Position numbers and translations under genes: made by a program. The notes beneath the pieces were generated by a model that saw nothing but the letters and a program-made list of their open reading frames with translations, did no database searches and had not been told where the DNA came from. Source: a virus (Duplodnaviria; Caudoviricetes). Taken from it: a stretch of 58,804 bases of DNA. The stretch covers positions 1-58,804 of IMG/VR virus record IMGVR_UViG_3300046777_001311. One strand, written 5' to 3'. Shown in pieces: positions 8,208 through 58,804 of the stretch (positions within the stretch are counted from its first letter, which is position 1; every line of letters starts with the position of its first letter).

Positions 8208-8984
8208 ATGCAAAATACAGGTCAAATCGTAAGAGCTAAGAGTGAAAAGGATTTCACTTTAATTAGCAACAAGCTTCTTCAAGATTGTTCTATGTCTTTT
8301 GAAGAAAAGGGTATGTTAGTGTTTCTATTAAGCCTGCCTGAGGATTGGGTTTTATACAAATCAAATCTGCACGAGAAAACAAACCAGCCAAAGGGTACTG
8401 TTGATCGTGTTTTTAAGCTGCTTCAAGATAAGGGGTACATTGTAAGTGTCAGGGTAATTGATGAGAAAACAAAGGTTTTCCAAGGTTGGAATCATGTGGT
8501 TTATGAAAGCCCGACTACGGAGGATAGCCGACATCGACAAACGCCGGAGTCGGAGAATGCCGATATCGGTCAAACTGCCCCTATACAAATACACAGTATT
8601 ACAAATACACATATAAACAAAACAAAGAAAGAAAATATAAAAAGAAAGAAAGTTGATTTTGAGCCGCCTACTCTTGATGAAGTTAAAAGATACTTTATAG
8701 AAAACGGATACTCACCAATCAAAGGGGAGCAGGCTTTCAACTACTACTCAAGTTCAAACTGGGTAGATAAAAATAACAAGCAGGTTCTTAATTGGAAATT
8801 GAAAATGCAAATGTGGTTTAAGCCTGAGGATAAGATAGATGTTTCAAAGATGGCTTTTGAAGTTGAGAACCCTGAAAGCTATGAGGGTTACAACAAGTGG
8901 CTGCACGTGGACCCAAAATACACCAAGTCGCTGGACGAAAAAAATATATGGAGATACAAAGCAAAACCAATCGGATTTAAATAA
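8208..8984 (+). CDS. Phage replication initiator (replisome organiser/lambda-O-like architecture)
   Basis: N-terminal FTLISNKLLQD...SFEEKGML wHTH-type region; linker carrying iterons; C-terminal FEPPTLDEV...FNYY...NWK module; upstream of primase-helicase. Confidence 0.7.
   Translation: MQNTGQIVRAKSEKDFTLISNKLLQDCSMSFEEKGMLVFLLSLPEDWVLYKSNLHEKTNQPKGTVDRVFKLLQDKGYIVSVRVIDEKTKVFQGWNHVVYESPTTEDSRHRQTPESENADIGQTAPIQIHSITNTHINKTKKENIKRKKVDFEPPTLDEVKRYFIENGYSPIKGEQAFNYYSSSNWVDKNNKQVLNWKLKMQMWFKPEDKIDVSKMAFEVENPESYEGYNKWLHVDPKYTKSLDEKNIWRYKAKPIGFK
8511..8660. repeat. Putative replication origin: four palindromic CCG-N4-CGG iterons followed by an A-rich tract
   Basis: CCGACTACGG 8511, CCGACATCGA 8528, CCGGAGTCGG 8544, CCGATATCGG 8560 (spacing 17,16,16); A-rich 8580-8660. 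Confidence 0.65.
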
Positions 8985-8985: not shown

Positions 8986-9195
8986 ATGGAAAACGCAAAG
9001 CAAATGGCAATCAATCTTGTAGACAGCCACTACAAAAAAATCACATCAATAGCAGATGATGATGCCGCCTACAAACAGGCGATAGAACACGCGCTAATCA
9101 CATGTGACACCGTTCTGGACAATACGAATAACCTACTTGTCCGAGAGAACTTTTTAATGTATCAAAAAATATACGAGGAGATTAAAAAATTATGA
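8986..9195 (+). CDS. Hypothetical protein
   Basis: ATG 8986 right after the initiator stop; coupled to the next ORF. Confidence 0.6.
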   Translation: MENAKQMAINLVDSHYKKITSIADDDAAYKQAIEHALITCDTVLDNTNNLLVRENFLMYQKIYEEIKKL

Positions 9196-9410
9196 CAACA
9201 CCGAGACAAAAGGCTATCGAACTAATTAGTAAATTAGGATTTCAAAGCGCCAAGTTGGTAGCCTCCAACATGACCTACGAGTTAGGATTATTAGCGCTAA
9301 CAGCAGACACAAAAGAGCATTCTGATGAAATAAAGGACAGAAGATTCTATTGGGACACAGTATTTGACATAATCAAAAAGGAATGGCATCAGAGAAAATT
9401 ATCAATTTAG
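9192..9410 (+). CDS. Hypothetical protein
   Basis: ATGA overlap with the previous ORF. Confidence 0.6.
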   Translation: MTTPRQKAIELISKLGFQSAKLVASNMTYELGLLALTADTKEHSDEIKDRRFYWDTVFDIIKKEWHQRKLSI

Positions 9411-11098
9411 AAAATAGAAAGACCTACATCGTAAACGCAGATCGTGTAGGTGAAAATTCTATGCCGTGTCCTGTATGCTCTCAAGACAGAAAGAAGAAGG
9501 ATGTTAAGTGCATGTCTTTCAATACAGTAGAGGGTGTAGGTAAATGTAATCATTGCGGCGCCCGATTTGTTAGGAAGAATGAGGACCGCGAGACACCAAG
9601 ATACGTGAGACCTGTACTACCATCAAATGTAACATCACTACCGGATAGACTTGTTGAATGGTTCAAGGAGAGGGGCATATCATCATCTACACTAATCGAC
9701 TTCAAGATTACGCATGGTAGACAGTTCTTCCCACAAGTATCTAAGGAGCGTAACTGCATAAACTTCAACTACTTCAGAAATGAGGACCTGATTAACGTGA
9801 AGTACAGGGACGCAGAAAAGAACTTCAGGCTTGTAAAGGATGCCGAACTAATTCTATATAATCTGGACAGCATAGACCAAAAATATGTTGTAATCACAGA
9901 GGGGGAGATAGATGCCATGTCCTACCACGAGGTAGGTGTTAAATCCGTAGTATCTGTTCCAAATGGAGCCTCAAAGAACAACCGTCTGCAATATATTGAC
10001 AACTGTATAGACGAGCTTGACGGAGTGGAAAGGATATATATAGCAACCGATGATGATGAGCCAGGAAGAGTTCTTCAAGAGGAGATAGCGAGACGATTAG
10101 GAAAGGAGAGGTGTAGACGTGTATCATTCTTTGGTAAGAAGGATGCGAACGAACTTTTGATAGCTGATCCATTAATGCTACCCAAGACATTGGAAGCCGC
10201 CGAAGAGTACCCCCTTGAAGGAGTGGTAACAGTAGATAATCTATCTGAAGATATATGGAGACTTAGAAGGGATGGTTTAAAGAGGGGTTGTGATATATCT
10301 ATAGACGAGTTCAATGACCTGCTAACATTTGTCCCTGGTTATGTTACAGGGGTAACAGGAATACCAAACCACGGTAAGTCGGAGTTCCTAGATCAGATTA
10401 TAGTTGACCTATCCGTAAAGCACGATTGGAGATTTGGAATATTCTCGCCTGAGAACTACCCACTTCAACTGCACTTTGCAAAGTTGGCAAGCAAGCTACT
10501 CGGAGTGTCCTTTAACGAGACAAATGACGCTCAAATCATATCGGCTATGAACTACTGCCGTGACAACTTCTTCTACATAGTACCGGAGGAGGATAATAGC
10601 CTCGATTCAATAATAGAACACGCTAAGAACCTTGTAAAGAGGTACGGCATAAACGCAATCGTTATAGACGCGTGGAATAAGCTTGACCACAACTACGTAG
10701 GTACAGAAACACAGCACATATCCAAAGAACTCGATAAGCTTATATCATTCTGCCGTAAGTATAGCGTACACGCCTTCGTTGTAGCACACCCAACTAAAAT
10801 GTCAAGAGACCCAAAGACACAAGCGTATAACGTGGCGACACTATATGACATGGCTGGATCCGCCCACTTCTACAACAAGATGGATAACGGTATATCCGTA
10901 TACCGAGAGTTCTTCCCCGATGGATCCTCACAGCCGCAAATCTATGTTCAAAAGGTAAAGTTCAAACATTGGGGGCAACAGGGTAGCGTAACACTACAAT
11001 ACGATGTTCCAACAGGTAGATATTATTTTTTTGGAAAAAGAGATAGAAGTTCTTATATTAGCAACGAATTTATCCACAAACAGGAATTAGATCTATGA
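9383..11098 (+). CDS. DNA primase-helicase (T7 gp4/Twinkle-like)
   Basis: Zn finger CPVC...CNHC, TOPRIM ITEGEIDAMS and TDDDEPG, SF4 Walker A GIPNHGKSE, IDAWN, VAHP. Confidence 0.92.
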   Translation: MASEKIINLENRKTYIVNADRVGENSMPCPVCSQDRKKKDVKCMSFNTVEGVGKCNHCGARFVRKNEDRETPRYVRPVLPSNVTSLPDRLVEWFKERGISSSTLIDFKITHGRQFFPQVSKERNCINFNYFRNEDLINVKYRDAEKNFRLVKDAELILYNLDSIDQKYVVITEGEIDAMSYHEVGVKSVVSVPNGASKNNRLQYIDNCIDELDGVERIYIATDDDEPGRVLQEEIARRLGKERCRRVSFFGKKDANELLIADPLMLPKTLEAAEEYPLEGVVTVDNLSEDIWRLRRDGLKRGCDISIDEFNDLLTFVPGYVTGVTGIPNHGKSEFLDQIIVDLSVKHDWRFGIFSPENYPLQLHFAKLASKLLGVSFNETNDAQIISAMNYCRDNFFYIVPEEDNSLDSIIEHAKNLVKRYGINAIVIDAWNKLDHNYVGTETQHISKELDKLISFCRKYSVHAFVVAHPTKMSRDPKTQAYNVATLYDMAGSAHFYNKMDNGISVYREFFPDGSSQPQIYVQKVKFKHWGQQGSVTLQYDVPTGRYYFFGKRDRSSYISNEFIHKQELDL

Positions 11099-11628
11099 TT
11101 AAGGAACTGACATCAATGGTTAAGCCACACATGGTAAACCAATTCTTAGAAACAATCATCAATAACGAATACGATAAAATAAAAGACGAAGCTATGGAAA
11201 TGCTTGAAGAGATACGCTGCAACATTGATGTTAAGCTGCATATCAAAATGTTTATGGAGGTTACACTCTCATGTTGCGCTGACGCATTTGGAACTACAGC
11301 CGATGAAATTCGAAGCCGCAATAGACGAAGCCACATAATAGACGCCAAAAGAGCCTACATGTGGATTGTAAAGGTATCAACAGGATGCACGCACAGATTC
11401 ATTAGCGACAACCTAGAGATGCACCACTCATCTGTTATACACCACCTCAACACAGTAGAGGCTTACCTAATGTATAACCCCGACTTTAAAACAAAACTCA
11501 ACTCTATCGTAACCGACTTAAAAAGAGTTGGATACACAGAGCCATCAGAGCAATTTGTTAACCATGTTAATAAAGCGGAGCAAAGAAAGAGAAGAAATAG
11601 GGATCGAATAAATAAGAACCGGTTGTAA
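11095..11628 (+). CDS. Stand-alone DnaA C-terminal (domain IV) HTH DNA-binding protein
   Basis: TTADEIRSRNRRSHIIDAKRAYMWI...ISDNLEMHHSSVIHHLNTV mirrors DnaA domain IV (S.xR...ARxxAMY...RDHTTVxHA). Confidence 0.7.
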   Translation: MIKELTSMVKPHMVNQFLETIINNEYDKIKDEAMEMLEEIRCNIDVKLHIKMFMEVTLSCCADAFGTTADEIRSRNRRSHIIDAKRAYMWIVKVSTGCTHRFISDNLEMHHSSVIHHLNTVEAYLMYNPDFKTKLNSIVTDLKRVGYTEPSEQFVNHVNKAEQRKRRNRDRINKNRL

Positions 11629-11654: not shown

Positions 11655-11807
11655 ATGGATATCAATAACCTAAATTTTCTCAAGTCACAAATCAAAGCGT
11701 TCCACCCAAATTGGTCGGAGCAGCAGGTAGAAATGGAAGCCATCAAAATAATAAACTCTCCAGACGATGAAGAGGATGATGATGGATGTTTATATTGTGG
11801 TTCATAA
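11655..11807 (+). CDS. 50-aa acidic peptide ending in CxxCGS (not in the supplied ORF track)
   Basis: MDINNLNFLKSQIKAFHPNWSEQQVEMEAIKIINSPDDEEDDDGCLYCGS*; A-rich leader and upstream -7 element. Confidence 0.7.
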   Translation: MDINNLNFLKSQIKAFHPNWSEQQVEMEAIKIINSPDDEEDDDGCLYCGS

Positions 11808-12013
11808 CTTATTAGCTCCGTTGGCCAGGAGATCGTAAAACACAGAATGCCTCTTGAATCGTACCAGCTGTACTATTATGGTATAGACGAACTCAATGCA
11901 CACTATCTGTTCTCATCGTATAGGAGATAGAGTTAGCCTTCTTGATGTCATTTAAAAAGGTTGACAGCTTGGAAAGACAGCCACCTTCGGGTGTGACCTT
12001 AAAACTAAATAAC

Positions 12014-12544
12014 ATGAGCAAGCACGCGAGTCTGCCATATCACATATACATCAATGTAAACAACGCCTTCCTAGGACCAAATGTGCCAAAAGGAACAACC
12101 AGAGGTATTGTCCATGCTGTTTACGGAAGAGAGTATCAAGTACTTCTGTTCCACGTCATGCTTGAAAGTGGTGCTAATTGGAGTGGACTTCCTATTCAGG
12201 CTATCTCAACTACAGATAACTTTGACCTAGATCACCACGCTCTAATGCCTTGGAAGGTTATGGGTGAGGATATAGACGTAGTTGAATTTAAATATTTAGA
12301 AGGATTACAGGTAAATACAAGAGCCGGTATTGGTAGACACACAGGAATAATAGTAGACTGGAAGGATGGATACTCAAGATATCAATCAGAACACAAGCCG
12401 CTAAACCTAATCATCCTAAACCAAGGTCAGATATGTTTGATGCCAAATAACTACTGTACATACGAAGATAAGCACTTTACAGAAGAGTCGGCAAAGGAGA
12501 ATCTCAAACACTACAGACGTGGCGATGAAATATACTGGGAATAA
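12014..12544 (+). CDS. Hypothetical protein
   Basis: ORF with ATG 12014 (MSKHASLP) after an A-rich leader. Confidence 0.7.
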   Translation: MSKHASLPYHIYINVNNAFLGPNVPKGTTRGIVHAVYGREYQVLLFHVMLESGANWSGLPIQAISTTDNFDLDHHALMPWKVMGEDIDVVEFKYLEGLQVNTRAGIGRHTGIIVDWKDGYSRYQSEHKPLNLIILNQGQICLMPNNYCTYEDKHFTEESAKENLKHYRRGDEIYWE

Positions 12545-12554
12545 AATATAAGTT

Positions 12555-12788
12555 ATGGAAAACAAGAAGCAAACCTCGGTAGATGTCCTATTCGAAATAC
12601 TATGGGAAACCCCAAAAGATAAATGGGAGTGGAATGCCGTACTCAAGAAGGTAAAGGAGTTGCACAAGGAGGAGATAAGAATTGCATATATGGATGGAGC
12701 GTTTGAAAAAATTAGGCATTTAGATGGTAAAGAATTTATGATGCCAACGGATTACTACAACGAAACATTTGGAGGTAACAATGAGTAA
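12555..12788 (+). CDS. Hypothetical protein (KQTxV...HKEEI...YYNETF type small phage protein)
   Basis: ORF in operon. Confidence 0.65.
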   Translation: MENKKQTSVDVLFEILWETPKDKWEWNAVLKKVKELHKEEIRIAYMDGAFEKIRHLDGKEFMMPTDYYNETFGGNNE

Positions 12789-13023
12789 GGTAATAATAGA
12801 ATTTGACCGAGTAGAAGAGGCAGAAGAACTCCGTACAGCCCTCGATGGACACAAGTACAAAATGCTCCTCTGGGAACTCGACCAAAAACTCCGTAGCGTC
12901 TCAAAGTACGGATCTGCTATAAGAGGGTCAGGACAAGCAACCCCGGAACAAATGGATGTGTGTGCCGACATACGAGAACTCCTCAGAGAAATGCTCCAAG
13001 AAGATAATCTAACAATAGAGTAA
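12781..13023 (+). CDS. Hypothetical protein
   Basis: ORF with ATG 12781; last gene before the long non-coding region. Confidence 0.65.
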   Translation: MSKVIIEFDRVEEAEELRTALDGHKYKMLLWELDQKLRSVSKYGSAIRGSGQATPEQMDVCADIRELLREMLQEDNLTIE

Positions 13024-13152
13024 GTCACAATATAGTCTTACATTTCAGTCATAAGGTCAAAATATAGGCTTACGGTATTAGATATCATACAATTTTTTAA
13101 TGTAATAAACTTGACATTCTTGTCTCAAATATCTACTATACTTGCGACAGCC

Positions 13153-13203
13153 ATTGTGGAAAATAATCACCAGAATCAAGCTTATTGTGGAAAATAATCC
13201 ACA
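13153..13203. repeat. Direct repeat ATTGTGGAAAATAATC x2 containing DnaA-box-like 9-mers
   Basis: TGTGGAAAA (rc TTTTCCACA, fits TTWTNCACA) at 13155 and 13186, 31 nt apart; TAATCCACA at 13195. Confidence 0.5.
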
Positions 13204-13436
13204 AAAGGGTATCGGAAACTTATAGATTGTCAAATTAAGTAAAATATGATAGACAAATAGATTTGATGTTAAAGAATGGACATCAAAGATGAACTTCAAG
13301 TTTCCTATACCATTTCGTTGACGCCAACAAGATGGTTAGCAGTCCCAACCAACCGTAGACACATAGTCGACACACACCCCCCCCACCAACAAACCAAAAT
13401 AGCCCAAGCGTGGAACACGCAGTCAAAATATATCCC

Positions 13437-13452
13437 CGTTTCACGTGGAACA
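13437..13452. promoter_or_regulatory. parS: parS site 1 (CGTTTCACGTGGAACA)
   Basis: 15/16 match, read on the minus strand, to TGTTNCACGTGAAACA. Confidence 0.75.
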
Positions 13453-13500
13453 GCAGAACGTAACAGAACATAGTGTGGAGGGGGTCATATATACATCCGG

Positions 13501-13638
13501 AGTGTACATATCGGTGGGCAAACCGCGTTTTTGCGAAAGGGGTGGGTCTCTAGTTAGTGTACGTTTCACACTAACCTTAGTGTACATTGTACACATACAT
13601 ATTGTACATTTTACAATAACCTTAGTGTATGCTGTACA
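13501..13638. repeat. Cluster of AGTGTA / TAACCTTAGTGTA repeats with an inverted repeat
   Basis: TAACCTTAGTGTA at 13572 and 13617; GTTAGTGT/ACACTAAC inverted repeat 13553-13575; further TGTACA units. Confidence 0.6.
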
Positions 13639-13647
13639 CTTTCTTCG

Positions 13648-13777
13648 TTATTTAGATTCATTCTAAATTAGGACTGCATATTGCAAATGTCAATTTATTT
13701 TTGTATGGCAGTTTGCTATAGTGAAAAAAGTTGACATTTCCAAATTTCACAGCTTATTTATACTCATTCTAAATTAG
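13648..13777. promoter_or_regulatory. Two 19-bp palindromic operator-like boxes (Fur-family-like)
   Basis: ATTTAGATTCATTCTAAAT 13650-13668 and ATTTATACTCATTCTAAAT 13756-13774, within 24-bp direct repeats. Confidence 0.5.
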
Positions 13778-13939
13778 CAGAAAATTTGCTTTTGTCATTT
13801 TTATTTCGTATTCGTGCGCGCGCGGGAATACCTATTACAAAGAATAGAGGGCAAAAGTGGTAATACAAATTTATTTCGCTGATAATCAATCATTTAGATA
13901 CGAGTCGAAAAAAACAGATAAAAAAAAATGCAAAAATAG

Positions 13940-13971
13940 TTGACTTTACTATTTCAATCGCCGTATCATTG
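13940..13971 (+). promoter_or_regulatory. Candidate early promoter
   Basis: TTG 13940-13942 and TATCATTG 13964-13971 (one mismatch to TAnnTTTG) after an A-rich UP-like tract. Confidence 0.4.
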
Positions 13972-14124
13972 CAGGGCCAATAGGGAATAAACGTATTCAG
14001 ATTGACAAGGTGAAAAAAAAGACATTAAGAAAAAAGGGACATGTGCCTAATAGGATAACTATGCCCTTGTGGAGACCACACGTAAAACGGAACTTAATGG
14101 GATAACTATGTAAATTTTAAAGCT

Positions 14125-14328
14125 ATGAATATAATAGATTCGGCATCGGTATACTATGCACAACCCGATGCACGTAAACAAGTGCATAAAGTTGGACGAA
14201 TTACGCGAACACATAAGAAAATTTGGGTGCAAAATGCACGTGAGGTAAGTTTCAATGCCGTTTGTAAGGTAATTGAAAAAAGTGAACGTGCACAAAAGCA
14301 ACGTGATGTGAGACGTGCGAAGCGTTAA
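14125..14328 (+). CDS. Small basic hypothetical protein, first early gene
   Basis: ATG with A/T-rich leader; Arg/Lys-rich 67 aa. Confidence 0.5.
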   Translation: MNIIDSASVYYAQPDARKQVHKVGRITRTHKKIWVQNAREVSFNAVCKVIEKSERAQKQRDVRRAKR

Positions 14329-14329
14329 T

Positions 14330-14345
14330 TGTTCCACGTGGAACA
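14330..14345. promoter_or_regulatory. parS: parS site 2 (TGTTCCACGTGGAACA)
   Basis: Perfect 16-bp palindrome of parS type, intergenic. Confidence 0.85.
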
Positions 14346-14430
14346 TTGAATTTAGCAACGGCTAAATGTAACTATATATTAGCATAGTGGAGGCCACACT
14401 ATAAACGGACGAATAGTAAACAAGGTACAT

Positions 14431-14446
14431 TGTTTCACGTGAAACA
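14431..14446. promoter_or_regulatory. parS: parS site 3 (TGTTTCACGTGAAACA)
   Basis: Exact canonical chromosomal parS consensus, intergenic. Confidence 0.9.
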
Positions 14447-14553
14447 TTGGTGCATATTCCTTAGTGGGATAGGTCTATACTTTGGCGGCTTCAAAGTTGC
14501 AAGGTGTAGGTTTAGGTACTATGCTACGCTGAAACCAATTTAAATTTCATACA

Positions 14554-14886
14554 ATGAAACAAGTATCTTTTGTATTAACGCAAGAAAACGATGTTAAATT
14601 TTACTTGCGTGGAACTTTCGAGTTCGAGGGTCAAGACGTTCAAAACGAAGTCTTTTTCCGTATCGTTAAATTCATGGAACGTGTAAAGCGTTTCAAGATG
14701 AAAACAAATTTCAAGTTCGGTAAAAAGTTTACCGTTGACATGAAAGTTGACGGGAAAACGTACCGAAGTACCGACCTATTCTTTGAGTTCGATGATTCAG
14801 GAACTGACTTCAAAGGTGGCATACGTCTTAATAAGAACAACACCTTTCGTCTACATGAGGTTTTAACTGAAATGGTTGAATCTTAA
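14554..14886 (+). CDS. Hypothetical early protein
   Basis: 110-aa ORF followed by a terminator. Confidence 0.75.
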   Translation: MKQVSFVLTQENDVKFYLRGTFEFEGQDVQNEVFFRIVKFMERVKRFKMKTNFKFGKKFTVDMKVDGKTYRSTDLFFEFDDSGTDFKGGIRLNKNNTFRLHEVLTEMVES

Positions 14887-14906
14887 TTGGCGGCTATTCA
14901 AAATTC

Positions 14907-14929
14907 AAGGGGGCTTCGTGCCCCTTTTT
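14907..14929 (+). terminator. Intrinsic terminator
   Basis: GGGGC-TTCGT-GCCCC followed by TTTTT. Confidence 0.8.
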
Positions 14930-14952
14930 CATTCACTAAAACTTAACGTAAA

Positions 14953-15129
14953 ATGATTACTCTCACAGTGCTCTCAGTTTTATTCACCATTTTATGTACA
15001 ATCAAAGTACAAAAGCAAAAAAGGTACGGACAATTTTCAATAGATAGCGGTTGGTATTTCGCTCAACTCATGAGTTTAGGATTCATAATCTCAATGGCTG
15101 TAGTGGCTATACTCGCTTACCTACCATAG
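14953..15129 (+). CDS. Small membrane protein, 58 aa (not in the supplied ORF track)
   Basis: MITLTVLSVLFTILCTIKVQKQKRYGQFSIDSGWYFAQLMSLGFIISMAVVAILAYLP*; two hydrophobic segments. Confidence 0.65.
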   Translation: MITLTVLSVLFTILCTIKVQKQKRYGQFSIDSGWYFAQLMSLGFIISMAVVAILAYLP

Positions 15130-15145
15130 TGTTCCACGTGAAACA
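15130..15145. promoter_or_regulatory. parS: parS site 4 (TGTTCCACGTGAAACA)
   Basis: 16/16 match to TGTTNCACGTGAAACA, starting immediately after a stop codon. Confidence 0.9.
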
Positions 15146-15175
15146 TAAAAAAGTATAACCATAAAAACAAACAAC

Positions 15176-15379
15176 GTGAAAAATCTAATCAATCAATTCT
15201 TAGTAGTGTTGCTATATGCAATGCTATTTGCGTTCACATACGCATCAATTTGCGGCTTAATCGCCCTAATATTTTGGACAAGCTACATAAGTGTGGCAAC
15301 TTATCCAGCTTCGATACTCATACTCATGGTGTCGGTTATATGTGTTGGATGTTACAAACTTTGTGAACTTAAATTCTAA
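15176..15379 (+). CDS. Small membrane protein
   Basis: GTG start after an A-rich leader; two hydrophobic segments. Confidence 0.65.
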   Translation: MKNLINQFLVVLLYAMLFAFTYASICGLIALIFWTSYISVATYPASILILMVSVICVGCYKLCELKF

Positions 15380-15383
15380 AGCA

Positions 15384-15557
15384 ATGAAAAAAGTAAACTT
15401 CTATGTAGTCATGTACCTATTAGCCATGACTTTTGCGGCTGCGTGTTTAACGTGTTGCACACCATCAAAGAGTTCTGTTAACCCATGCGAGCACTTTGTA
15501 AACAAGGGGCATAAACAAAATGCCCATGACCTGCTACCATATCATAGAAACAATTAA
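15384..15557 (+). CDS. Small lipoprotein
   Basis: MKK + hydrophobic stretch + lipobox-like LTCC; ATG 15384. Confidence 0.6.
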   Translation: MKKVNFYVVMYLLAMTFAAACLTCCTPSKSSVNPCEHFVNKGHKQNAHDLLPYHRNN

Positions 15558-15568
15558 AATCAAATAAC

Positions 15569-16816
15569 ATGGAAGAAGAAAAAACTCCAGAAACAATCCT
15601 CCTATACAACGGAGAAGAAGTCAGCACCGACACAACAACGGGTTGCTTTGACTATGGTCAATATCAAGGCCAACTATACGCCAATGGTGATGATGATGTT
15701 ATCATCTTGACAAGTGGTGATACATGTCACCGCGATGATGATTGGCACACCACAAATTGCGGTGATACATTCCACGAAGATGAACAGGACAGCCTTGACA
15801 TAATCTATGCGGACTATGATGGTGAGTACGCCTATTCATCAGATTGTACCTATGGTATAGTAGACCGTAGGGGTCATGAGGGGTATTGGTTAGACACATA
15901 TCATGACCATGAAGCCGTATATTCAAATAGAGATAGCACTCATTTCATTGACTCACAAGTAGCACGTGAACATGACTACATCTTTGATGATAATCAAGAC
16001 GATTGGGTACACATAGATGATTATGAGGGTGATAATGATGATGATGAGGGTGAGGATACGTCCTCTTATGTTAAGTCATATCATGGCTATTCAAGACAGT
16101 TTGTTTGTGACTCTTCGGCGGCTTGGAAGTTTGGTGTCGAGGTCGAGAAGGAGGACTGCGATGCTAAGACCATGGAGTACCCCGATACTATATACAACGC
16201 TGTCAAGTGGTGTAAAGAATCGGACGGGTCTCTCAATGACTACTCTGGCTTTGAGTTGGTGTCGCCCGTGTATGACCTCATGGACAAGGATACTTGGTTG
16301 CGTGACTTTTCACACCCACTTATCGAACCGCTACTCAATGCTAAACATAGTTCATCATGTGGTGGTCACATCCACATATCATCAAGTATGTATACACCTG
16401 ATGAGATTATGTTAGGACTTAGCGGCTTCCTACCTATACTGTACAGCCTTTACAAGAGACGTATGTTTGCCGACTACGCACGTACTAAGAAGAAGTATCA
16501 GTACCTAACTGAGAAAACTAAGAGGGCGAGTGTATATGTGCAAGATAGGACTTGTGAGTTCCGTATCTTCCCTGCTGTACGTAGTAAGGATAACTTGATA
16601 TGGCGGCTTGACCTACTACGCATCTTCATTGACAACTTCAATGCCTCTGAGCGTGATGTCCTCAAGATGTTGTGTAATACATCACACCCCCTTCATATTC
16701 ATATCAAGAATATGGTTGGTGATGATAAAATGACTGAGAAGATTGATGAGTTCATCGGCTTCAGTAAGACGTGGAATAACTTTAATTTAGATAATGACGA
16801 TAAAACAATCAAATAA
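15569..16816 (+). CDS. Amidoligase (COOH-NH2 ligase type 2) with an acidic N-terminal extension
   Basis: FGVEVE, DGSL, GFELVSP, CGGHIHIS, CEFRIF motifs. Confidence 0.85.
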   Translation: MEEEKTPETILLYNGEEVSTDTTTGCFDYGQYQGQLYANGDDDVIILTSGDTCHRDDDWHTTNCGDTFHEDEQDSLDIIYADYDGEYAYSSDCTYGIVDRRGHEGYWLDTYHDHEAVYSNRDSTHFIDSQVAREHDYIFDDNQDDWVHIDDYEGDNDDDEGEDTSSYVKSYHGYSRQFVCDSSAAWKFGVEVEKEDCDAKTMEYPDTIYNAVKWCKESDGSLNDYSGFELVSPVYDLMDKDTWLRDFSHPLIEPLLNAKHSSSCGGHIHISSSMYTPDEIMLGLSGFLPILYSLYKRRMFADYARTKKKYQYLTEKTKRASVYVQDRTCEFRIFPAVRSKDNLIWRLDLLRIFIDNFNASERDVLKMLCNTSHPLHIHIKNMVGDDKMTEKIDEFIGFSKTWNNFNLDNDDKTIK

Positions 16817-16818
16817 TT

Positions 16819-17721
16819 ATGTGCATAGCAATCTTAAACCCTGAAGATGTTACTCTTGATAAGAGTGTTCTTCGCACGTGTTGGGACAATAACACGGATG
16901 GAGCTGGTATTCTATACGTAGATGGCGGCGTCCTAAAAACACACAAGGAGATGTCTAACTTTGATTCATTCTATGATGAGTATCTACGTATACGTAGTGC
17001 TCACAAGGAGTCTCAAGTAGTCATACACTTCCGTATATCTACACATGGCAAGGTCAATGAGACTAACTGCCACCCATTTATTGTAGATGATTATTGGGGT
17101 TTTGTGCATAACGGTATCATATCCAATGCACCACACCATGCTGATTACAGCGACACCTATATGTTTAATCAAGAGGTACTTCAAAAGCTACCTAAGGATT
17201 GGTTATTCAATGACGCCATCTATGAACTTGTTGTAGGTTACATTGGCTCATCTAAGTTGCTGTTTCTTAATGCCGACAACGATGCCTATATTCTTAACGA
17301 AGATATGGGTGTGTGGGACTTAGGCTGTTGGTTTAGTAACAAGACGTACAAAGAGTCACGCTACTTTGACTATGGCGGTAAGCAGGTATGGAAGTCGGCG
17401 GCGACCCCTACTATCACCTCCTCCTCTACTACTAAAGATTATTCTACTAAGTGGTGGGACCGTAATGATTACTCACCTAAGTGGGAGTGGGATGATAAGA
17501 AAAAAGATTATGTTAACAAGTCGGCGGCTGCGGATGTTTTTGATGATGAGGATGTGGATGTGGACAACTACCCATACGCCGAGTGGCCGACTGATGCGTC
17601 TGAGTTATTCATAGACACTTGCGATGGCTGTGATTCTCCAGAGGTGCTTGTCGCCTACGATACATCATACAACGCTTGCCTATGTAAAAGCTGCCACGAT
17701 GATTTGTACACACCCTTTTAA
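16819..17721 (+). CDS. Class II (Ntn) glutamine amidotransferase
   Basis: N-terminal Cys (MCIAI), NxDGAG, HFRISTHG, NCHPF, HNGII, SDT. Confidence 0.9.
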   Translation: MCIAILNPEDVTLDKSVLRTCWDNNTDGAGILYVDGGVLKTHKEMSNFDSFYDEYLRIRSAHKESQVVIHFRISTHGKVNETNCHPFIVDDYWGFVHNGIISNAPHHADYSDTYMFNQEVLQKLPKDWLFNDAIYELVVGYIGSSKLLFLNADNDAYILNEDMGVWDLGCWFSNKTYKESRYFDYGGKQVWKSAATPTITSSSTTKDYSTKWWDRNDYSPKWEWDDKKKDYVNKSAAADVFDDEDVDVDNYPYAEWPTDASELFIDTCDGCDSPEVLVAYDTSYNACLCKSCHDDLYTPF

Positions 17722-36969: not shown

Positions 36970-37447
36970 TTGCTAACTCTTGATCAAAGATAATTAAACC
37001 ACAAGTATCACCGTTTATTACGGCTAATCTAGCTGAATAATCACCATATAATCCAGCCGACTTTCTCTGAATCTCTATAAACTCTAATAGTATTTGCTGA
37101 CAAGTTGGATCAGCAGTTTTATAAAAATCAGTATAGAACTCTAATAGTGACACCTCACTTTCATAAGCAACCTCAATGGCATCTACAATACCTTCAATCT
37201 TTTCATCACATTTATCAATCATAGGCATCTCTGCTAACACGCCTACATCATTTAAGAAGTCGGCTATCTTTTGATAATGTTCTACCTCCTCCTCGCTCTC
37301 ATGCTTGAAAAACTTATACGACCCAAGATAACCCAAGACCTGAAGCTGATTAGCAATATGGCGATATAGGTGAGATACATACATCTCTTGATATAAAGCT
37401 TGATTGAATTTATCAATGCAATCATTTGAAATTAAAGCGTTTTTCAT
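36959..37447 (-). CDS. Ferritin-like protein
   Basis: QEMYVSHLY, ESEEEVEH, AYESE, EIQ ferroxidase-site pattern; ATG 37447 overlaps the upstream stop (TAATG). Confidence 0.85.
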   Translation of the reverse strand: MKNALISNDCIDKFNQALYQEMYVSHLYRHIANQLQVLGYLGSYKFFKHESEEEVEHYQKIADFLNDVGVLAEMPMIDKCDEKIEGIVDAIEVAYESEVSLLEFYTDFYKTADPTCQQILLEFIEIQRKSAGLYGDYSARLAVINGDTCGLIIFDQELANGL

Positions 37448-40400
37448 TATAGTCCACAAATTTTAGTTATTCCTAACTGGTTTATAATAGTTTCAAAGTT
37501 ATCATTTATTTCCTTAGCTTTCATATAAAGTTCTCCAAAGTTTTCACGATTTTGCTGTTCCATCCTCTGACGAGCTAATCCCCTCTTGTTAGATATAACA
37601 TCCATCTCTTTGAATATCTTTCCACCATCCTTTCTTATCTGATCTCTCCTAAGAACATCTTCGGTAGATTCAAGTGTCTGACCATATAGTCTTTCTAAAT
37701 ATGGTGTTTCAGAGCGTTTGGCGGCGTTCCGAGCTTCGGTCTCGCCAACCATATTCCAATAGTCCTTATGAGCCGCTGAATAAACAGCATATTCGTTTAT
37801 CTTAGATATAGCAAAGTTGACGTCATTAGAATCTAATTTCTGTATTTGGTCCGGTCTGAAAACAGCCTTTAGTAAAGCTTCTGGATTATTGCCGTATTGA
37901 GATTTATCATAATTTCCATTATATATATCCATTAAGCTAACTCCATTATCAGCCATTACCTGTATATCAATAACGCCGTAATTAATAGAATCTTCTACGC
38001 TGTTACCAACTAATGTGAGTCCTGGTATTTTATACACATCTTGAGAACGCTTGATTCTATCTTGCATCATCTCTACATTACCACCATTCTCAAATCCCTC
38101 TTGATCTTGTATGTAGTGTTGTATCTCATGAATCAAAACCTTCTGAACTTCATCTATACCTACTTGATTTATTATCTTTGGATTTAAAGATACCAATCCT
38201 CTAGCAATGTCTAACTGACCATAAGCTTCTGATTGAAGGCTATCATCTAATTCAAAGTATAAATCCTCTATGTATGGATACGCCTTTTGTAGCTCTCCAA
38301 AGTTTAATATTTCTGATAACGGAATAGCTGGCGGCTTCGTTTCAAATCGGTCACTGATTCCCTGGCTTTGATTGTACCCCTTAACAACTAATCTAAAGTC
38401 GTTCTCATCTTGTAAATCATCCTTCAATGTTACATTTGGATACTCATATCTCCATTTTCCATCAGCTCCCATCTCCCAACCGGTAGCCCTCTTAATGTCT
38501 GTTGATGGCCTATTGTTGGAAGCCATAAGTTTAGCCGTTTCTAAATCCTTTTGAGCAACTTTATCATTTGCATTTTCAATACCCCTCTCACCTACTATTT
38601 GCTCTTTTGACTTAACTTGCTGCTTAGCCTTTATATCTCTTGCTATAACTGCTCTATAATTATCTTCAGTAGCAACTTCTCCTTCAGCATAAACTATAGA
38701 AACTAATCCACCATTATCATATTCGGCTATTGAATACAAAGACCCATCTTCATTGTACGATTTAAAAACACCCTGTTTTTCACCTTCAACAAATTCACCA
38801 ATTCCTTCTAACTGGCCATTTTCATGATATGTTTTTTTAACTCCTTGTAATTCTCCATCTAAATAATTAGATTCTTCTTCTAACTGGCCATTTTCATGAT
38901 ATGCTTTAGTAGGTCCGTTTGGCATCCCATCAAAATAATTTCGCTCATAATTTAATTGGCCATTAGGATAATAAGATCTTTTTAAACCTTCAATATTACC
39001 CTCGTCATTATAAGTAGCTATTGATTCTAACTGACCATTATCATGATAATATTCAACAGTTCCAGATGGAACATAATCTCTAAGCGAAAATTTACTTTTT
39101 AATTGACCATTTCGGTGATATTCAATCTCATCATAACTACCTTTATTAAATGAAATATATATTTTTTCTGATGCTAAAACGCCATCTCTATAAAAGTATT
39201 TTTCATCATAACCAACATCAAATGTATATCTCTTTTCAAACTCTAAAGACCCATCTTCATAATAACCTCTTTTAGTTCCGTTTACAGAGTTTTCAGAATA
39301 TGGTGTAGATAATCTTAATTTACCATCAGGATAATATACCAACTCCTCTCCATTTAATTTTCCATTAGACCAATTTGAGCTAACTTTTAATGTGCCATTT
39401 TCATAATATTCTTTTGAAAGTCCATCTCTAACTCCATCTTTTAAACTCTCCTCTCTTATTAAAGTTCCATCACTAGTCCACTCCTCTTCTTTTGTTTTTG
39501 TCTTTCTAAATATATTACCACTATCTACAATAGAACCATCTTCAGAGTATTCAACTACTTGCTTTTTACCATCTCCAATATTTTTATTTGAAGGAATGCC
39601 TTGATGTGGATCGTCTTGTCTATCCCACCATTCATCCATAGTTGTTGCGCTTGCACAAAAGGCTGTTAATTTACCGTTGTCAAAAGCAATTTTCTTAGGT
39701 ATTCTATTATATTTATTAATCCATAAACTCCAAGCGTTTTCTAATGATCCGGCTGTTCTTGCTGCTATGCACCATGGATTTGCCTTTTCTCCAAAATGAG
39801 TATCAATAATTCTTCTAACGGCAGCTTGACCCTCTTTGGTATTATCAACATCATATACTGTTATATTAGTTCCAGGTATAGTCTTTTTGTTAGAAAACTC
39901 TTTTATAGAGTCTGGATTAATAGGCTTCTCTTTAATTGTATCTTTAAACTTTTCAATAAGTTCTATTGGATTATTATATGAGAATGGATCTATTTTATTT
40001 TTAGTAGCAACTCTTTCAGCCTCTACTACTTTATAACCATCTTCTGGCAGTATTAAATGTGAATTGTTTATATAGTGAAAAGCAAGTTTTTCAAGTTTAG
40101 GATTGCCTTGACCATTCTGTGAATTTTCTTCTCCAAACTTTTCAACTTCAGATATAACACTATCTATCAGTCCCTGCTGAACAAGATCTGGTCTTTTCTT
40201 TTCCAATAATCTCTTATACTCCTCCTTCTTTTTGTTTGATATCTGTTGTTTAGAAGATACTGTATTTGAAATGTAATTTTCTAATTCATTTTCAGACATA
40301 GGTTCTTCTTTTTCCCTACTTTCAACTATTTCAGGTTGAGATATTGCTTCAGGCTTTGGTGTTGCGGTCTCCCTCTCAATAATTCTTGATTCTGAAGGCG

Positions 40401-43400
40401 CTTGACCAAATCTATCTTGAAGACCTCTGATTTTAGATTGCAATCCAGACACATCTCTACCTGTAGACATAGTTAACGCAACACTATTAAAGAAGTCAAC
40501 TAAAGCCTGTGTCTTTGCATTAGATTTAAATGGCACTACATTACCCTTTGTAATTCTTGATACAAAGTTGTTTATCAATGTCATTAACTTTTGAAGAATA
40601 GACGGCTCTATTTTCCCTCTATTTTCAGTCAATCGGGCGGCTAGTTGAACTAAATATTCCTCCGATTTAACATCATCCTCATACCCCTCCTGATTTGCAA
40701 AGTCATTAAGCTTCTTGTTTTCACTTTCAGATAGCAACTTTGAAACTCTATCCTTAAACTCTTCAAATAAAACAGGGTTATCACCAAATGCTTTTGCTAA
40801 TATAGCGTGTGTTAATTCATGAGGAGTTGTAGTACCATCCGCCTTAGATAAATCAACATGGACGCCAATCACATTTCCATTACCGTCCAATATAATAGCA
40901 CCTGCCTGAGATAGTTTTTTACCCTGAGCTTCAGTAGCTAATTCATACTCCTCTGTATTTTCGTGAAGATAAACCTTTAGGCCTGGATATATCTTTTTAA
41001 TAGCCTCAATAGCTACCGCAGCAGAACTTATTAAATTTCTCTTTTTACTATCACTTTTGTTCTTCTTTAATAGCTCATTCTTCCTTTTGTTGTTGTATTC
41101 ATTCCCTTCAAGAAGTTGCTGTCCTAAGTCGCTTTCGGCGGCTTGCTGAGTTTTAGGTTGCTCTTTAACCTCCTCCTCTTTAGCAGCCTCTACTTTAGGA
41201 GCCGCCTTAGTATAAGGAATCTCAACATTATTCTCCGTTACAATCTCATCAAATACTACATCAAATAGAGCCTGTGGTGCTGGACCAACTTCCTGTTTAG
41301 CTATTTCAATCCCAATATCAATAGACAAATCAGTGTCCATTATCCCTAAAACAGAACCATTTGGAAGAGTTATCTGAGCAGATGTTGTAACACCCTTTTT
41401 ATTTACAGATTCTACACCTGCAAATTTAGAATCTCTATTTGTAACAGCTGCCTCTCCAATAACTACAGATTTAGGCTGTTGTCTACCTACCTTATTAGGT
41501 ACAAATACGTAGTTTCCATCCTCAATTTTTAACTTTCCAGCTCTACCATTATAGGTTACATCTATTGATTCTTCTGCGGCTGTTCTGAGGGGGATTGTTG
41601 CTCGCTCATTTTTTGCTTGAGTCTTTGGAGTAGTTCCAGTTGCAACTGCTTGGGTAGTTGTGCGAGTTTCAGTTCTTGTTCCAAGTTCATAATCTTGTAT
41701 TTTTTGTAATCTATTTTCAATAGGTAGTGACATTTGAGCCTTTTGCTCAGCAGATAAATTTGGATTTGAATCAATATCGTTTAATAGCTCATATAAACTA
41801 TCCTCCGCTTGTTTTCTCTCCTCATCATTAATCGGCTCTATTTTTTCAATTTTAGCCTCTACATTATCTACTACCTCTAATGTTCTATTTAAAACGTCAG
41901 AACCTACTTTTTCCTTACCTTCTTCAGTAGTTACTTGAGTTTCTGTTTTAGCAGATGTAGGTGCGGTAGATTGAGTACCTTCTAAAGCAGCTAGTTCTGC
42001 ATCATACTTAGCATTGATTAATTTTTCAGCTTTTGGTATTATTGCAGTAGTTACATAATCTAATGCTTCTTGTCTTGTTTTAAATTCTTCTGATAAAGCC
42101 GTACTATTTGAAAAACCTGTGCTACTTTGTTTATTAGGTAAAGAAACAACTACTCCAAAAGTTCCATCTGGTCTTTGTACAATATCAACATCAATAGATT
42201 CTGATTCTAAATTATATCCACCATATTCTATTTTATTTTTACTTAACTCTTCCCGTCTTCTTCTTTCTATTTCGGCAGCAGCTTTATTTCTATCCCCTAC
42301 TTTCCCTTTACCTTCTTCGGTAGTGACTTGAGGTTCTGCTTGGGGTGTTCCTTCCTCCACTTGTTGGCCAACTGCGGCTTCTGGCTGTACAGGAACTTGA
42401 CCTGTTTCTGACTCTTGAATGGCATAATTTTCTGTATTTGGGTGTAAAAATGATAATCTAAAATCATTATTCTTTAATGATTTGTCAATATACTCTTTTG
42501 CTTTATTTGAAATTTCTGTTTTTTGATCATCAGTAAAATCAAGGTCAGACCTAACTTCAATATTATAAGACCCATCTGAATTAACCATTACATTTCTAAC
42601 TCCTAGACCCATCAACACATCATCGTTATATGGAACAGCTTTATCTGAACCATAATCCAATTTACCAGTTAAATATAAATTGATTCTTTCATCAATACCT
42701 GCTAATTCATCTTTTACAGAAGGGAGATCTACTCCTAACTGCCTCATGTTGTCCTGTATATTTTTCTTTCTATAAGCTAATGATACAATCATATCTTGAT
42801 TAGCCTTTGTTAGATTGTTAAATCCAGGTATAGAATTTAGACCTTCAACAACTGAACTTATTCCTTTTAAGTCTTTTTCTAATTGCTTATATGCATCATC
42901 ACCTGGGTTCATTCCAAATGACTCTGTTTTTTCTATTATAGAAAGAACATCCTTCCAATTTCTGCCTAAATATGACAGGTTTTCCATTTGAGTTCGACTT
43001 AGCGGCCTTGCAGATTTGAAAGCCGCCATAGTTCCACCGGTTAAAAACCCTGCTAATGCATTATCATAATATGGTTTAATTTGCCATGCATCTTTAAATG
43101 GTATTGCCGCATCAGATGGGCTATTACCTCTTGCATAGCTAACCATATCATTTTGGCTATATATAGTATTGCCTAAATCCTTAGAAATATCAACACCAAG
43201 TTGACCTATAACCTCTTCAAAAGCTTCTTTACCACCTTGTTCAACAACACCTTTAGTTGCCTTTCCAAAATATTTTAAAGCTTCTTCACTTATTTTGCTT
43301 AATGGAATATTTGCACGATACATAGATATAATCCCAGCTGTTCTAAATGGATTGGCTCTAACTAAATCGTAATCGTTAACAACCTGCTCAGCTAATGCTT

Positions 43401-58035: not shown

Positions 58036-58804
58036 TTATACATACATCAAACCACACTGCTCAATCTTGAACCAGTCGAAACCGAATTGAGTCAACATGT
58101 AAACTACATAGTTGTCATTTGGTCCCAAGCGACGTGGAGAAGCAGCTCCATCATCCCATACTTTCATGAAACGATCTTCACCGTCCATTGATTTGTATGC
58201 AAGTTCTACGCAGTTACGCATTACACCTTGAGCGTCAGCAGACTTCTCAGCAGGAATGAAGAATCCGTAGTCAGCAAACTTAGCGTTTGATACAGCTCCG
58301 AACATTACTGGGTCATAAGACAAGTCGAATGACTTTAAGTGTAAGTTCTTACCGTTCAAAGTAATAGTGCTGAATGCGAATGTAGACATCATTGTTTCGA
58401 AATCAGTGTTGTTTCCGAAGATAACTTTAGCACCCTCTTGACGAGTAGACGCGATGTTTACGTTGTTAGTGTAGCTCAACAACTCTTGTTCAGCAGCTAC
58501 ATATAGGTCTTTTGATAACAATCCCATAAGGTCTGTTCCAACCCAGTTAGCTTTCAAACCATTTACAAGGTTGTAGAAATCATCAACCAAAGTTGCAGCA
58601 GTCCAAGCTTCTTGAACAGCGCGATCTTTGAATGTTTCAACCATACCCTTAGTAGTACTTGGCTGACCTGAAGCAGTTGTAGTGTCTCCGTAAACCATAG
58701 CACCAACTAATCCCAACAAGTGACGATATTCGTGTTGAGCAAACAAGTGTGTGTGGAATCCTTTTAAAGACTTTCCATCATCCATCATTACAGGATACAA
58801 CTTG
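58036..58804 (-). CDS. Major capsid protein, C-terminal part (5' end outside the window)
   Basis: TTKGMV, FAFSTITLNG, C-terminal VYMLTQFGF HK97-like ending; codon choice typical of a highly expressed gene; followed by a terminator. Confidence 0.7.
   Translation of the reverse strand, partial: KLYPVMMDDGKSLKGFHTHLFAQHEYRHLLGLVGAMVYGDTTTASGQPSTTKGMVETFKDRAVQEAWTAATLVDDFYNLVNGLKANWVGTDLMGLLSKDLYVAAEQELLSYTNNVNIASTRQEGAKVIFGNNTDFETMMSTFAFSTITLNGKNLHLKSFDLSYDPVMFGAVSNAKFADYGFFIPAEKSADAQGVMRNCVELAYKSMDGEDRFMKVWDDGAASPRRLGPNDNYVVYMLTQFGFDWFKIEQCGLMYV

Follow-up and report, generated by a model that had tools for sequence, protein, structure and literature searches.

In the plasmid-prophages P1 and N15, ParA and ParB are phage-encoded, and the site sequences are likewise their own and non-chromosomal. 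For chromosomal parS the classic survey is said to be that of Livny et al. from 2007, and the primary paper on phi29 and Spo0J is reportedly that of Meijer et al. from 2005; Spo0A boxes make up the second half of the phi29 strategy. Our scan of the phi29 genome recovered four exact copies of TGTTTCACGTGGAACA and one copy with three mismatches. According to one study, phi29 is a virulent phage without ParB that has five reported parS sites and uses them via the host protein Spo0J to segregate its own DNA, trapping the genome in the prespore (PMC2731898). A second report describes parS-like copies in SGI1 that bind the ParB of IncC plasmids and destabilise the helper plasmid (PMC10954446). Full texts, a scope that lies mostly outside subscription journals, yielded no precedents other than the phi29 family and SGI1, and earlier reports are possible. 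The concept is therefore already known from phi29 in Bacillus, and the novelty that the first-pass annotation of the present DNA had implied for parS in cis without ParB does not stand against that precedent (PMC2731898; our check of the phi29 sequence); here the concept would appear in a probable Bacteroidota, non-sporulating host.

We analysed a stretch of 58,804 bp, hereafter the window, which is an IMG/VR virus record from a freshwater phage of ~60 kb. The parS consensus TGTTNCACGTGNAACA has four matches in the window (three exact and one with a single mismatch), all within 1.7 kb, and upstream of them a replication module opens with the gene at 8208 to 8984. The features of the region are as follows.

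8208 to 8984, plus strand: replication-initiator/DnaD-like protein (phrog_186, 4707 and 270; E values of 1e-9 to 1e-16)
9383 to 11098, plus strand: primase/helicase with Toprim and DnaB_C (Pfam/PHROG)
11095 to 11628, plus strand: 177-aa protein with a predicted DnaA domain-IV fold (fold search)
13139 to 13206, plus strand: conserved non-coding block with a 23-nt direct repeat (copies at 13153 to 13175 and 13184 to 13206)
13409 to 13417, no strand: half-site CGTGGAACA, 20 nt upstream of site 1
13437 to 13452, no strand: parS site 1, CGTTTCACGTGGAACA, one mismatch (position 1 is C, not T)
13464 to 13494, plus strand: 31-nt element CAGAACATAGTGTGGAGGGGGTCATATATAC, 12 nt downstream of site 1, almost invariant in 5 of 5 aligned phages
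13555 to 13841, no strand: repeat-rich non-coding stretch with repeats and a palindrome
14125 to 15379, plus strand: small variable genes among sites 2 to 4 (14125 to 14328, 14554 to 14886, 14953 to 15129, 15176 to 15379)
14330 to 14345, no strand: parS site 2, TGTTCCACGTGGAACA, a perfect palindrome that begins 1 nt past the TAA of the ORF at 14125 to 14328
14431 to 14446, no strand: parS site 3, TGTTTCACGTGAAACA, a perfect palindrome, intergenic
15130 to 15145, no strand: parS site 4, TGTTCCACGTGAAACA, which begins immediately past the TAG of the ORF at 14953 to 15129
15569 to 16816, plus strand: Amidoligase_2-like gene, directly downstream of the site cluster
16819 to 17721, plus strand: class-II glutamine amidotransferase-like gene, adjoining the Amidoligase_2-like gene

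Judged by sequence, the four window sites are canonical chromosomal-type parS. All those that the first-pass annotation had placed at 13437, 14330, 14431 and 15130 were recovered, and the rest of the window holds no further match to TGTTNCACGTGNAACA at ≤1 mismatch; dinucleotide-preserving shuffles of the window gave no match at all (0 of 100). Relaxing the threshold to ≤3 mismatches raised the count to 13 against 2.4 expected, the nine extra matches being scattered and without the complete CACGTG core or arms. The ORF map agrees that the sites lie outside credible genes and that two of them, sites 2 and 4, follow a stop codon by 0 to 1 nt, and the juxtaposition of site 4 with a stop codon recurs in one relative (L007). 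Site 1 is surrounded by a 1.1-kb stretch with short mechanical ORFs only (e.g., 13276 to 13473), and alignment of this stretch among relatives shows indels, as in non-coding DNA; the C at position 1 of site 1 is also found at the homologous place in relatives.

The window is nearly the whole phage genome. A contig of 99% identity (L038) bridges the two ends of the window, positions 58804 and 1, with 1,706 bp of intervening sequence. Within this gap, one gene encodes an acidic scaffold-like protein (387 aa) and another contributes the N-terminus of a virion protein (466 aa). Six-frame searches of the record gave no match to PF02195 (ParB_N), PF17762 (HTH_ParB) or PF13614 (AAA_31, ParA-type); no partition protein or integrase emerged when 70 window ORFs and the capsid ORF that spans the gap were scanned against Pfam or PHROG, and no ParB_N was found in the records of five relatives. 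The earlier remark that no ParA, ParB or integrase was in view thus extends, through profile and ORF-level scans, to the whole genome, and the concern that a par gene might sit in the missing part falls away, the gap holding only scaffold and capsid genes. A recognisable repressor or integrase was not found in the genome, nor anything indicating a carrier state or lysogeny; the phage also encodes RecT and a terminase. The first-pass annotation had further assigned the site cluster to a probable first-entering or early end, which is unfounded, the assemblies being circularly permuted and the genome having no known physical end.

Two to five sites each, in the same relative place, are found in seven further records of related phages, giving eight independent site-bearing records with the window included; the sites are thus neither unconserved nor positionally random among relatives, as they might have been had the original idea been wrong. 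Two to four sites are present in each of the five close relatives whose sequence continues downstream of the primase for at least 4.1 kb, and the relatives G335 and G334 have five and two. A comparison of 18 non-redundant sites, taken from five records of related phages, shows no variation at 13 of the 14 specified positions; the exception, position 1, has T in 12 sites and C in 6, and of the N positions one takes only C or T and the other only A or G, the same as in bacterial sites. The flanks of these sites show no conservation, although the 16-mer is constant. Site spacing and the intervening or neighbouring genes vary between relatives, and the four small genes in 14125 to 15379, none of which has a Pfam or PHROG family, come and go while the sites stay. 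The Amidoligase_2-like and glutamine amidotransferase-like genes are present in all assessable site-bearing relatives and were not found in G333. This complete and syntenic relative has no sites at all, from which we conclude that the sites are an accessory and dispensable trait rather than core to this phage type; likewise, neither G331 nor G332 has one over 7 to 8 kb downstream of the shared replication genes. Of the cultured phages examined, the closest is Flavobacterium phage elemoE, with no site in the 50 of its 60 kb that were scanned, and a DNA search of window positions 12000 to 17000 against cultured phage records gave no match. Contigs of four sequencing runs set against the window reveal a mosaic population in which block ends coincide with site boundaries, a coincidence that counts for little because joints at low likeness are unreliable. 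Whether window proteins occur together with the sites was also compared between close and distant loci anchored on the primase; this does not discriminate, since the distant clade has only the primase in common.

These data bear directly on the reading that the palindromes have no selected function and are captured host origin-proximal DNA, an assembly chimera, or chance RNA hairpins or terminators. A simple terminator scan does pick out site 2, as a hairpin with T-rich sequence behind it, and two sites abut stop codons, but the eight independent site-bearing records speak against such an origin, and in 9 of the 18 sites position 5 is C and position 12 is A, which breaks hairpin pairing with no compensatory changes, so that what is conserved is the sequence itself. 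Rfam gave no match at E ≤1 on 12500 to 15700, and a tRNA scan found no tRNA. The segment matched only 3 of 301 Bacteroidota genomes, over just 25 to 40 bp each, which disposes of the suggestion that the segment is a chimeric host oriC fragment. We regard this reading as close to refuted and give it hardly any credence.

The host is probably a member of the Bacteroidota. Shine-Dalgarno-like motifs precede only 2 of 45 starts, Bacteroidota account for 12 of the first 13 listed primase relatives in cellular assemblies, and the named cultured-phage terminase matches are all phages of Flavobacteriia (86 of 86, at 26 to 28% identity). Sequencing runs with phage sequence came from freshwater, lake, estuary or other metagenomes, and among the runs listed there was no isolate run naming a host and no RNA run. 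Exact copies of TGTTNCACGTGNAACA occur in 61 of 81 sampled Bacteroidota genomes (one copy in 22, two in 32, three in 4, four in 2 and five in 1), a reversed-motif control matched 0 of 81, and ParB_N is present in 80 of 81. The supposition that the host lineage uses this parS is thereby supported for the phylum, of which the actual host is a probable member; because 20 of the 81 genomes have no exact site, the true host might use a parS variant. A scan of 12500 to 16000 listed 23 sigma-70 promoter-like sites (12.3 expected) and 8 terminator-like sites (2.3 expected), with a consensus that is probably unfit for a Bacteroidota host. The Bacteroidota -7 box is TAnnTTTG, and this word is denser in intergenic DNA (2.7 per kb) than in coding DNA (1.3 per kb), an excess too weak to serve as evidence since the AT-richness of intergenic DNA could account for it; none of these words overlaps a parS site.

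The sites adjoin the replication module and the stretch at 13555 to 13841, a candidate origin or regulatory region with iteron-like 40-nt direct repeats (13555 to 13594 and 13600 to 13639), an inverted repeat with 61-nt arms (13650 to 13774) and a GC palindrome (13798 to 13841). The 177-aa protein at 11095 to 11628, which occurs in 9 of 9 close loci, is modelled as a DnaA domain IV: the top matches in the fold search, 3pvp and 1j1v, are complexes with DNA (target TM 0.83 to 0.87, rmsd 1.4 Å), with weak Foldseek E values of 6e-3 to 4e-2, and a PDB sequence search with it gave nothing at E ≤0.01, so that the assignment comes from the fold search only. The placement of the array beside a probable origin and next to a protein of DnaA domain IV only may hint at a small module that copies how the host arranges the surroundings of its oriC. 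It also raises the possibility that the palindromes and half-sites are origin or operator boxes for a phage-encoded binder, either this protein or one of the small conserved proteins without annotation, such as those encoded at 9192 to 9410, 11655 to 11807, 12555 to 12788 and 12769 to 13023, with the parS identity incidental or a form of ParB-excluding mimicry. The DnaA-box consensus is TTATCCACA, with the relaxed form TTWTNCACA, and the half-site TGTTCCACA differs from it at only two positions. Half-sites are kept beside site 1, CGTGGAACA being retained in L007 and L009 and replaced in L010 and L017 by two half-sites of the TGTTCCACA type; five non-site heptamers fall in 11.7 to 14.7 kb against 0.6 expected, in an interval picked post hoc. 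Two DnaA-box words lie in the 23-nt direct repeat (13153 to 13206), each copy of which includes TGTGGAAAA, a sequence that on the opposite strand reads as the DnaA-box-like word TTTTCCACA, and one lies at 11070, just upstream of the DnaA-C gene.

Other observations fit such a binder poorly. G333, G331 and G332 retain the DnaA-C homologue (profile E values of 1e-17 to 1e-20) yet have no full site, and they hold 0, 1 and 3 heptamers, respectively, in the 7 to 8 kb downstream. A monomer of DnaA domain IV recognises an asymmetric 9-mer, which leaves an invariant 16-bp palindrome with a fixed half overlap unexplained, and the window has no excess of the relaxed DnaA-box word (9 against 8.4 expected). 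Moreover, the same 16-mer occurs in unrelated viral lineages, including phi29, that have no proteins in common with this phage, and the small ORFs show no HTH or ParB-like family. The half-sites also fit ParB, since ParB of Pseudomonas aeruginosa is described as binding half-parS heptamers (PMC10419367). We therefore consider this explanation improbable, although the half-sites and the adjacent protein leave room for it; were the phage to encode the binder, the predicted DnaA domain-IV protein would be the first choice, and relatives show that it can occur apart from the sites.

Clustered sites are also present in other viral sequences. Among the matches listed, 22 of 119 IMG/VR stretches with the motif have two or more sites, ParB_N was found in 0 of the 20 multi-site stretches tested, and these stretches share almost no proteins with this phage; a common trans-factor would therefore most simply be the host's. 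At least 36 of 64 sites in the other loci are intergenic, a lower bound because the crude greedy ORF map over-calls coding sequence through spurious ORFs and labels even window sites 1 and 2 as coding. Orphan arrays may thus be carried by this probable Bacteroidota phage and by at least a dozen unrelated IMG/VR lineages without ParB_N. Only tentatively do we extend this to the view that orphan host-type parS arrays are a widespread and repeatedly acquired phage trait, not bound to sporulation, that would act through the host's ParB-CTP clamp, and via it ParA and SMC, in positioning, inheritance or compaction, or alternatively would outcompete the host's one or two sites.

Four host-type centromeres without a ParB of its own mean that the phage most likely borrows that of its host. 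We favour, as somewhat better than an even prospect, the reading that the palindromes are genuine parS kept in cis, bound by host ParB and serving the positioning or inheritance of the phage. Host ParB would bind the phage sites as it does the one or two on the host chromosome, close into CTP clamps, spread across the adjacent early/replication region and link the phage DNA to its recruits, ParA and SMC. The phage genome might then be positioned and inherited alongside the host origin region while lysis is delayed, a counterpart in a non-sporulating host of the phi29/Spo0J strategy. The proposal in the first-pass annotation that the phage carries a host-type centromere to load host ParB is borne out as regards the sites, which are canonical and conserved in a phage without ParAB, and by the fit to the host phylum; binding by ParB is a step that we infer from these. 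The purpose, above all, is put forward by analogy, since no integrase or recognisable repressor was found in the genome and it has no pointer to a carrier state or lysogeny; the purposes listed in the first-pass annotation, among them segregation, SMC loading, silencing and titration, are all candidates on these data.

Binding by host ParB could instead amount to a takeover, in which the replicating phage array soaks up ParB and breaks up the host's partition complex and, at oriC, the loading of SMC, an effect that would resemble the incompatibility of the SGI1 parS mimics on IncC plasmids. In its favour, the phage has three exact and one near-exact site (five in G335) where 54 of 81 Bacteroidota genomes have one or two, and the DnaA domain-IV-only protein could disturb host initiation, fitting a wider attack on replication and segregation. 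ParB is non-essential in many bacteria, so titration may bring the phage little, and the complete relative G333 manages without sites. The SGI1 copies do bind plasmid ParB and destabilise the helper plasmid (PMC10954446), whereas phi29, the sole studied case, segregates its own DNA with its sites (PMC2731898). We judge titration to be unlikely.

If host ParB does load on the phage, the phi29 strategy would not be limited to spore-formers, and phages without lysogeny genes would have a general route by which to tie their DNA to the host segregation machinery. This would bear on how "virulent" phages persist in slow-growing natural populations (carrier state or pseudolysogeny). Clustered canonical parS without parB would then be a signature searchable in viromes, and the phage a natural system in which to study the action of the ParB-CTP clamp on foreign DNA.

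Set against the known systems, the phage is like P1 (ParAB-parS) and N15 (SopAB) in combining extrachromosomal phage DNA with centromere sites, but it encodes neither ParA nor ParB, as plasmid-prophages of that type do, and its sites have the chromosomal consensus. With SGI1 it shares reliance on cis sites only and on the ParB of another replicon; SGI1, however, is an integrative mobilisable island that exploits the ParABS of a helper plasmid rather than a chromosomal one, and it adds a small protein, Sci, of which we identified no counterpart in this phage (PMC10954446). Chromosomal parS of Bacteroidota offers the identical 16-mer, the same C/T and A/G choices and small clusters within ~2 kb, whereas here the cluster is on a phage, has three exact and one near-exact site (only one or two in 54 of 81 genomes) and has no parAB nearby. 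Compared with phi29, a 19-kb protein-primed podovirus of Bacillus with sites spread over 8 kb and partly intragenic, this phage is unrelated and much larger (~60 kb), encodes a primase/helicase, RecT and a terminase, and has its sites clustered within 1.7 kb beside the replication module. Bacteroidota are not known to form endospores, so the known purpose of the phi29 sites, entrapment in the endospore, cannot apply as such, a conclusion that is probable rather than certain because the host assignment is itself probable. The phage resembles phi29 in its makeup: both are virulent, both lack ParA and ParB, each has a site that begins directly past a stop codon (in phi29 it is the gene 16 stop, at 17243), and both, as read from their sequences, carry several host-type parS 16-mers with no ParB of their own.

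The window carries four matches to the parS-type motif TGTTNCACGTGNAACA at no more than one mismatch and no fifth, and none of 100 dinucleotide-preserving shuffles contained even one, which bears out the first-pass annotation in its claim of four canonical parS sites here and none elsewhere. They lie downstream of a replication module and directly upstream of a gene pair:

8208-8984, initiator/DnaD-like protein (replication module)
9383-11098, primase/helicase (replication module)
11095-11628, + strand, stand-alone DnaA domain-IV protein of 177 aa (Pfam PF08299, 32.9 bits), directly after the primase/helicase
13437, parS site 1, within a 1.1-kb stretch (13030-14120) with short mechanical ORFs only
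14330, parS site 2, starting 1 base past the stop of ORF 14125-14328
14431, parS site 3, intergenic
15130, parS site 4, starting immediately past the stop of ORF 14953-15129
15569-17721, + strand, Amidoligase_2-like and class-II glutamine amidotransferase-like genes, directly downstream of the four-site array

At up to three mismatches the whole window gave 13 matches, where 2.4 were expected and no shuffle exceeded 7; the nine extra ones, at two or three mismatches, are degenerate and scattered (3458, 10342, 15444, 20452, 23818, 30742, 31066, 38776, and 39058), and this excess could represent weak sites or a composition effect missed by the shuffles. Juxtaposition with a stop codon is common to sites 2 and 4, the homologue of site 4 in the related phage L007, and an exact parS of phi29 (17243-17258 in L235, genome EU771092) that immediately follows gene 16 as annotated. 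Site 2, unlike sites 1, 3, and 4, is followed after 5 nt by an inverted repeat, ATTTAGC-N4-GCTAAAT (14350-14367), which may resemble KorB operator half-sites.

The virus appears to lack any partition system of its own. Six-frame searches of the IMG/VR virus record, which the window spans in full (58,804 bp) and which CheckV rates 89% complete, gave no match to ParB_N, HTH_ParB, or ParA-type AAA_31, and scans with Pfam or PHROG, covering 70 ORFs of the window plus the capsid ORF that spans the gap, recovered no integrase, no classical repressor, and no partition protein. A contig of 99% identity (L038) bridges positions 1 and 58804 through 1,706 bp, which encode an acidic scaffold-like protein of 387 aa and the N-terminal part of a virion protein of 466 aa; the genome is therefore ∼60.5 kb, its assemblies are circularly permuted, and the gap hides nothing relevant. 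The earlier observation that no ParA, ParB, or integrase gene is visible therefore extends genome-wide. PD-(D/E)XK nuclease and RecT genes lie farther along the window, and the late genes are of the ordinary kind (terminase, portal, virion proteins, tail fibres, and endolysin). Among the virion genes is a 2,718-aa ORF (37447-45603, - strand) with no PHROG family; Flavobacterium phage elemoE and MW202828.1 have structural genes of similarly huge size.

We compared 30 primase-anchored IMG/VR loci, 11 with primase identity of at least 77% and 19 with 39 to 47%. All five close loci with at least 4.1 kb downstream (L007, L009, L010, L016, and L017) carry two to four sites each, 2.7 to 5.4 kb past the primase; the other six end 313 to 3,884 bp past it and were left out of the count. 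Eight of the distant loci (39 to 47% identity) extend 6 kb or more past the primase, and all eight lack a site at up to one mismatch; the distant loci have only the primase in common with the window. Intermediate relatives found through the capsid gene include two with sites (five in G335 and two in G334) and three with none (G331, G332, and G333, the last 66 kb and rated complete). In a set of 18 non-redundant sites drawn from five records, 13 of 14 specified positions are invariant, position 1 being T in 12 and C in 6; the free positions are C/T only and A/G only, and the flanks are unconstrained. Because nine of these sites have C at one free position and A at the other, breaking hairpin symmetry, it is the DNA sequence and not an RNA structure that is conserved. 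The genes between sites vary from relative to relative, and in contigs from four runs of four studies blocks of likeness begin or end at 13436, 14330, 14446, and 15130, which offers weak support. When the 2.2-kb segment was compared with 301 Bacteroidota genomes, only three matches of 25 to 40 bp came up, one of them site 3 itself; a captured or chimeric host fragment, such as the oriC piece that the first-pass annotation had considered, is therefore all but ruled out.

Site 1 lies in a conserved non-coding region (13139-13841) with a 23-nt direct repeat containing DnaA-box-like words, a C-rich run, and half-sites. Two further blocks here are conserved, a 31-nt element (13464-13494) that hardly varies and a TTTTGCGAAAGGGGTGG block; the other features are iteron-like repeats, a GC palindrome, and an inverted repeat of some length. 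No Rfam family matches the region, which on these sequence features is a candidate origin.

Several observations concern the probable host. Only 2 of 45 gene starts have an SD-like motif ahead of them, Bacteroidota account for 12 of the first 13 cellular-assembly relatives listed for the primase (41 to 46% identity), and all 86 named cultured-phage matches of the terminase, at only 26 to 28% identity, are phages of Flavobacterium, Cellulophaga, Tenacibaculum, or Maribacter; the phage was present in sequencing runs from freshwater and other aquatic metagenomes. Of 81 sampled Bacteroidota genomes, 61 contain the exact 16-mer (one copy in 22, two in 32, three in 4, four in 2, and five in 1), mostly with copies within ∼2 kb of one another, while a reversed control pattern matches none of the 81; ParB_N is present in 80. 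Since 54 genomes hold just one or two copies, the phage array is at the upper end of the range on the chromosomes sampled. We consider it likely that host ParB binds the sites, and with less assurance we lean, by analogy, toward the joint reading that host ParB, once bound, would position the phage DNA and secure its inheritance while lysis is delayed. Titration of host ParB by the array is a live rival.

Another live rival is that the sites are bound not by host ParB but by a phage-encoded protein, the main candidate being the 177-aa DnaA domain-IV protein, which has only five homologous clusters, every one from the same phage group. Its model (pLDDT 78.5) is closest to 3pvp and 1j1v, both complexes of DnaA domain IV with DNA (target TM 0.83 to 0.87, rmsd 1.4 Å; Foldseek E-values weak), conserved DnaA-box-like half-sites adjoin site 1, and heptamers outside the sites are locally dense (a 3-kb interval, picked post hoc, has 5 where 0.6 are expected). 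Binding of half-parS heptamers by ParB is described in Pseudomonas aeruginosa (PMC10419367), so half-sites are no argument against ParB. Moreover, the DnaA-C homologue (profile E 1e-17 to 1e-20) and the primase (61 to 65%) persist in G333, G331, and G332, yet the 7 to 8 kb downstream lacks a full site in all three and has just 0, 1, and 3 heptamers, respectively. Because these site-less relatives still carry it, the protein is separable from the sites, and the array is an accessory element within a variable early region. G333 is syntenic with the window over structural and replication genes (terminase 85%, portal 72%) and has no detectable homologues of nearly all of 11.6-19.3 kb. The amidoligase/amidotransferase pair, present in every assessable site-bearing relative (L007, L009, L010, G334, and G335) and not found in G333, may simply share a variable segment with the sites. 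The DnaA domain-IV protein itself may act in competition with host DnaA or else mark the phage's origin. An exact TTATCCACA box lies at 11070, 17 nt upstream of its start; homologues occur in G331 to G334, and MW202828.1 has a small gene annotated 'dnaA'.

An IMG/VR scan for the exact motif returned at least 119 stretches (L049 to L167), 22 of the 119 having two or more sites among the matches listed. ParB_N was found in none of 20 multi-site stretches tested among those listed (L053 and L134 left out), six of them records rated at least 90% complete. The multi-site stretches listed share almost no proteins with the window phage; they include three that are phi29-like by annotation (L067, L133, and L166, with Phi29_MCP, gp9 knob, and Gp16), small PolB/Gp16 viruses (L130, L081, and L136) whose sites are near a terminus, and unrelated phages of 60 to 116 kb (L150/G106, L086/G008, and L083/G110).

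The core of the first-pass proposal, that the phage probably hijacks host ParB, is sound; the idea is not new in kind, because phi29 and SGI1 are already reported to exploit a foreign ParB through parS. What is new is a phage lineage carrying host-type parS, a probable host phylum that does not sporulate, and a tight parS cluster adjoining the replication module, with a hint that orphan parS arrays recur across many viral lineages. According to PMC2731898, phi29 has five parS sites for the Spo0J of its host and uses the host's machinery for segregation to become entrapped in the spore; EU771092 holds four exact copies and one at three mismatches. Our phage resembles phi29 in bearing host-type parS on a phage genome, with no ParB of its own, but differs in that spore entrapment cannot be the purpose in its probable, non-sporulating host phylum. 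SGI1, according to PMC10954446, likewise bears parS mimics, through which it uses and disturbs a ParABS system that in that case belongs to the IncC plasmid.
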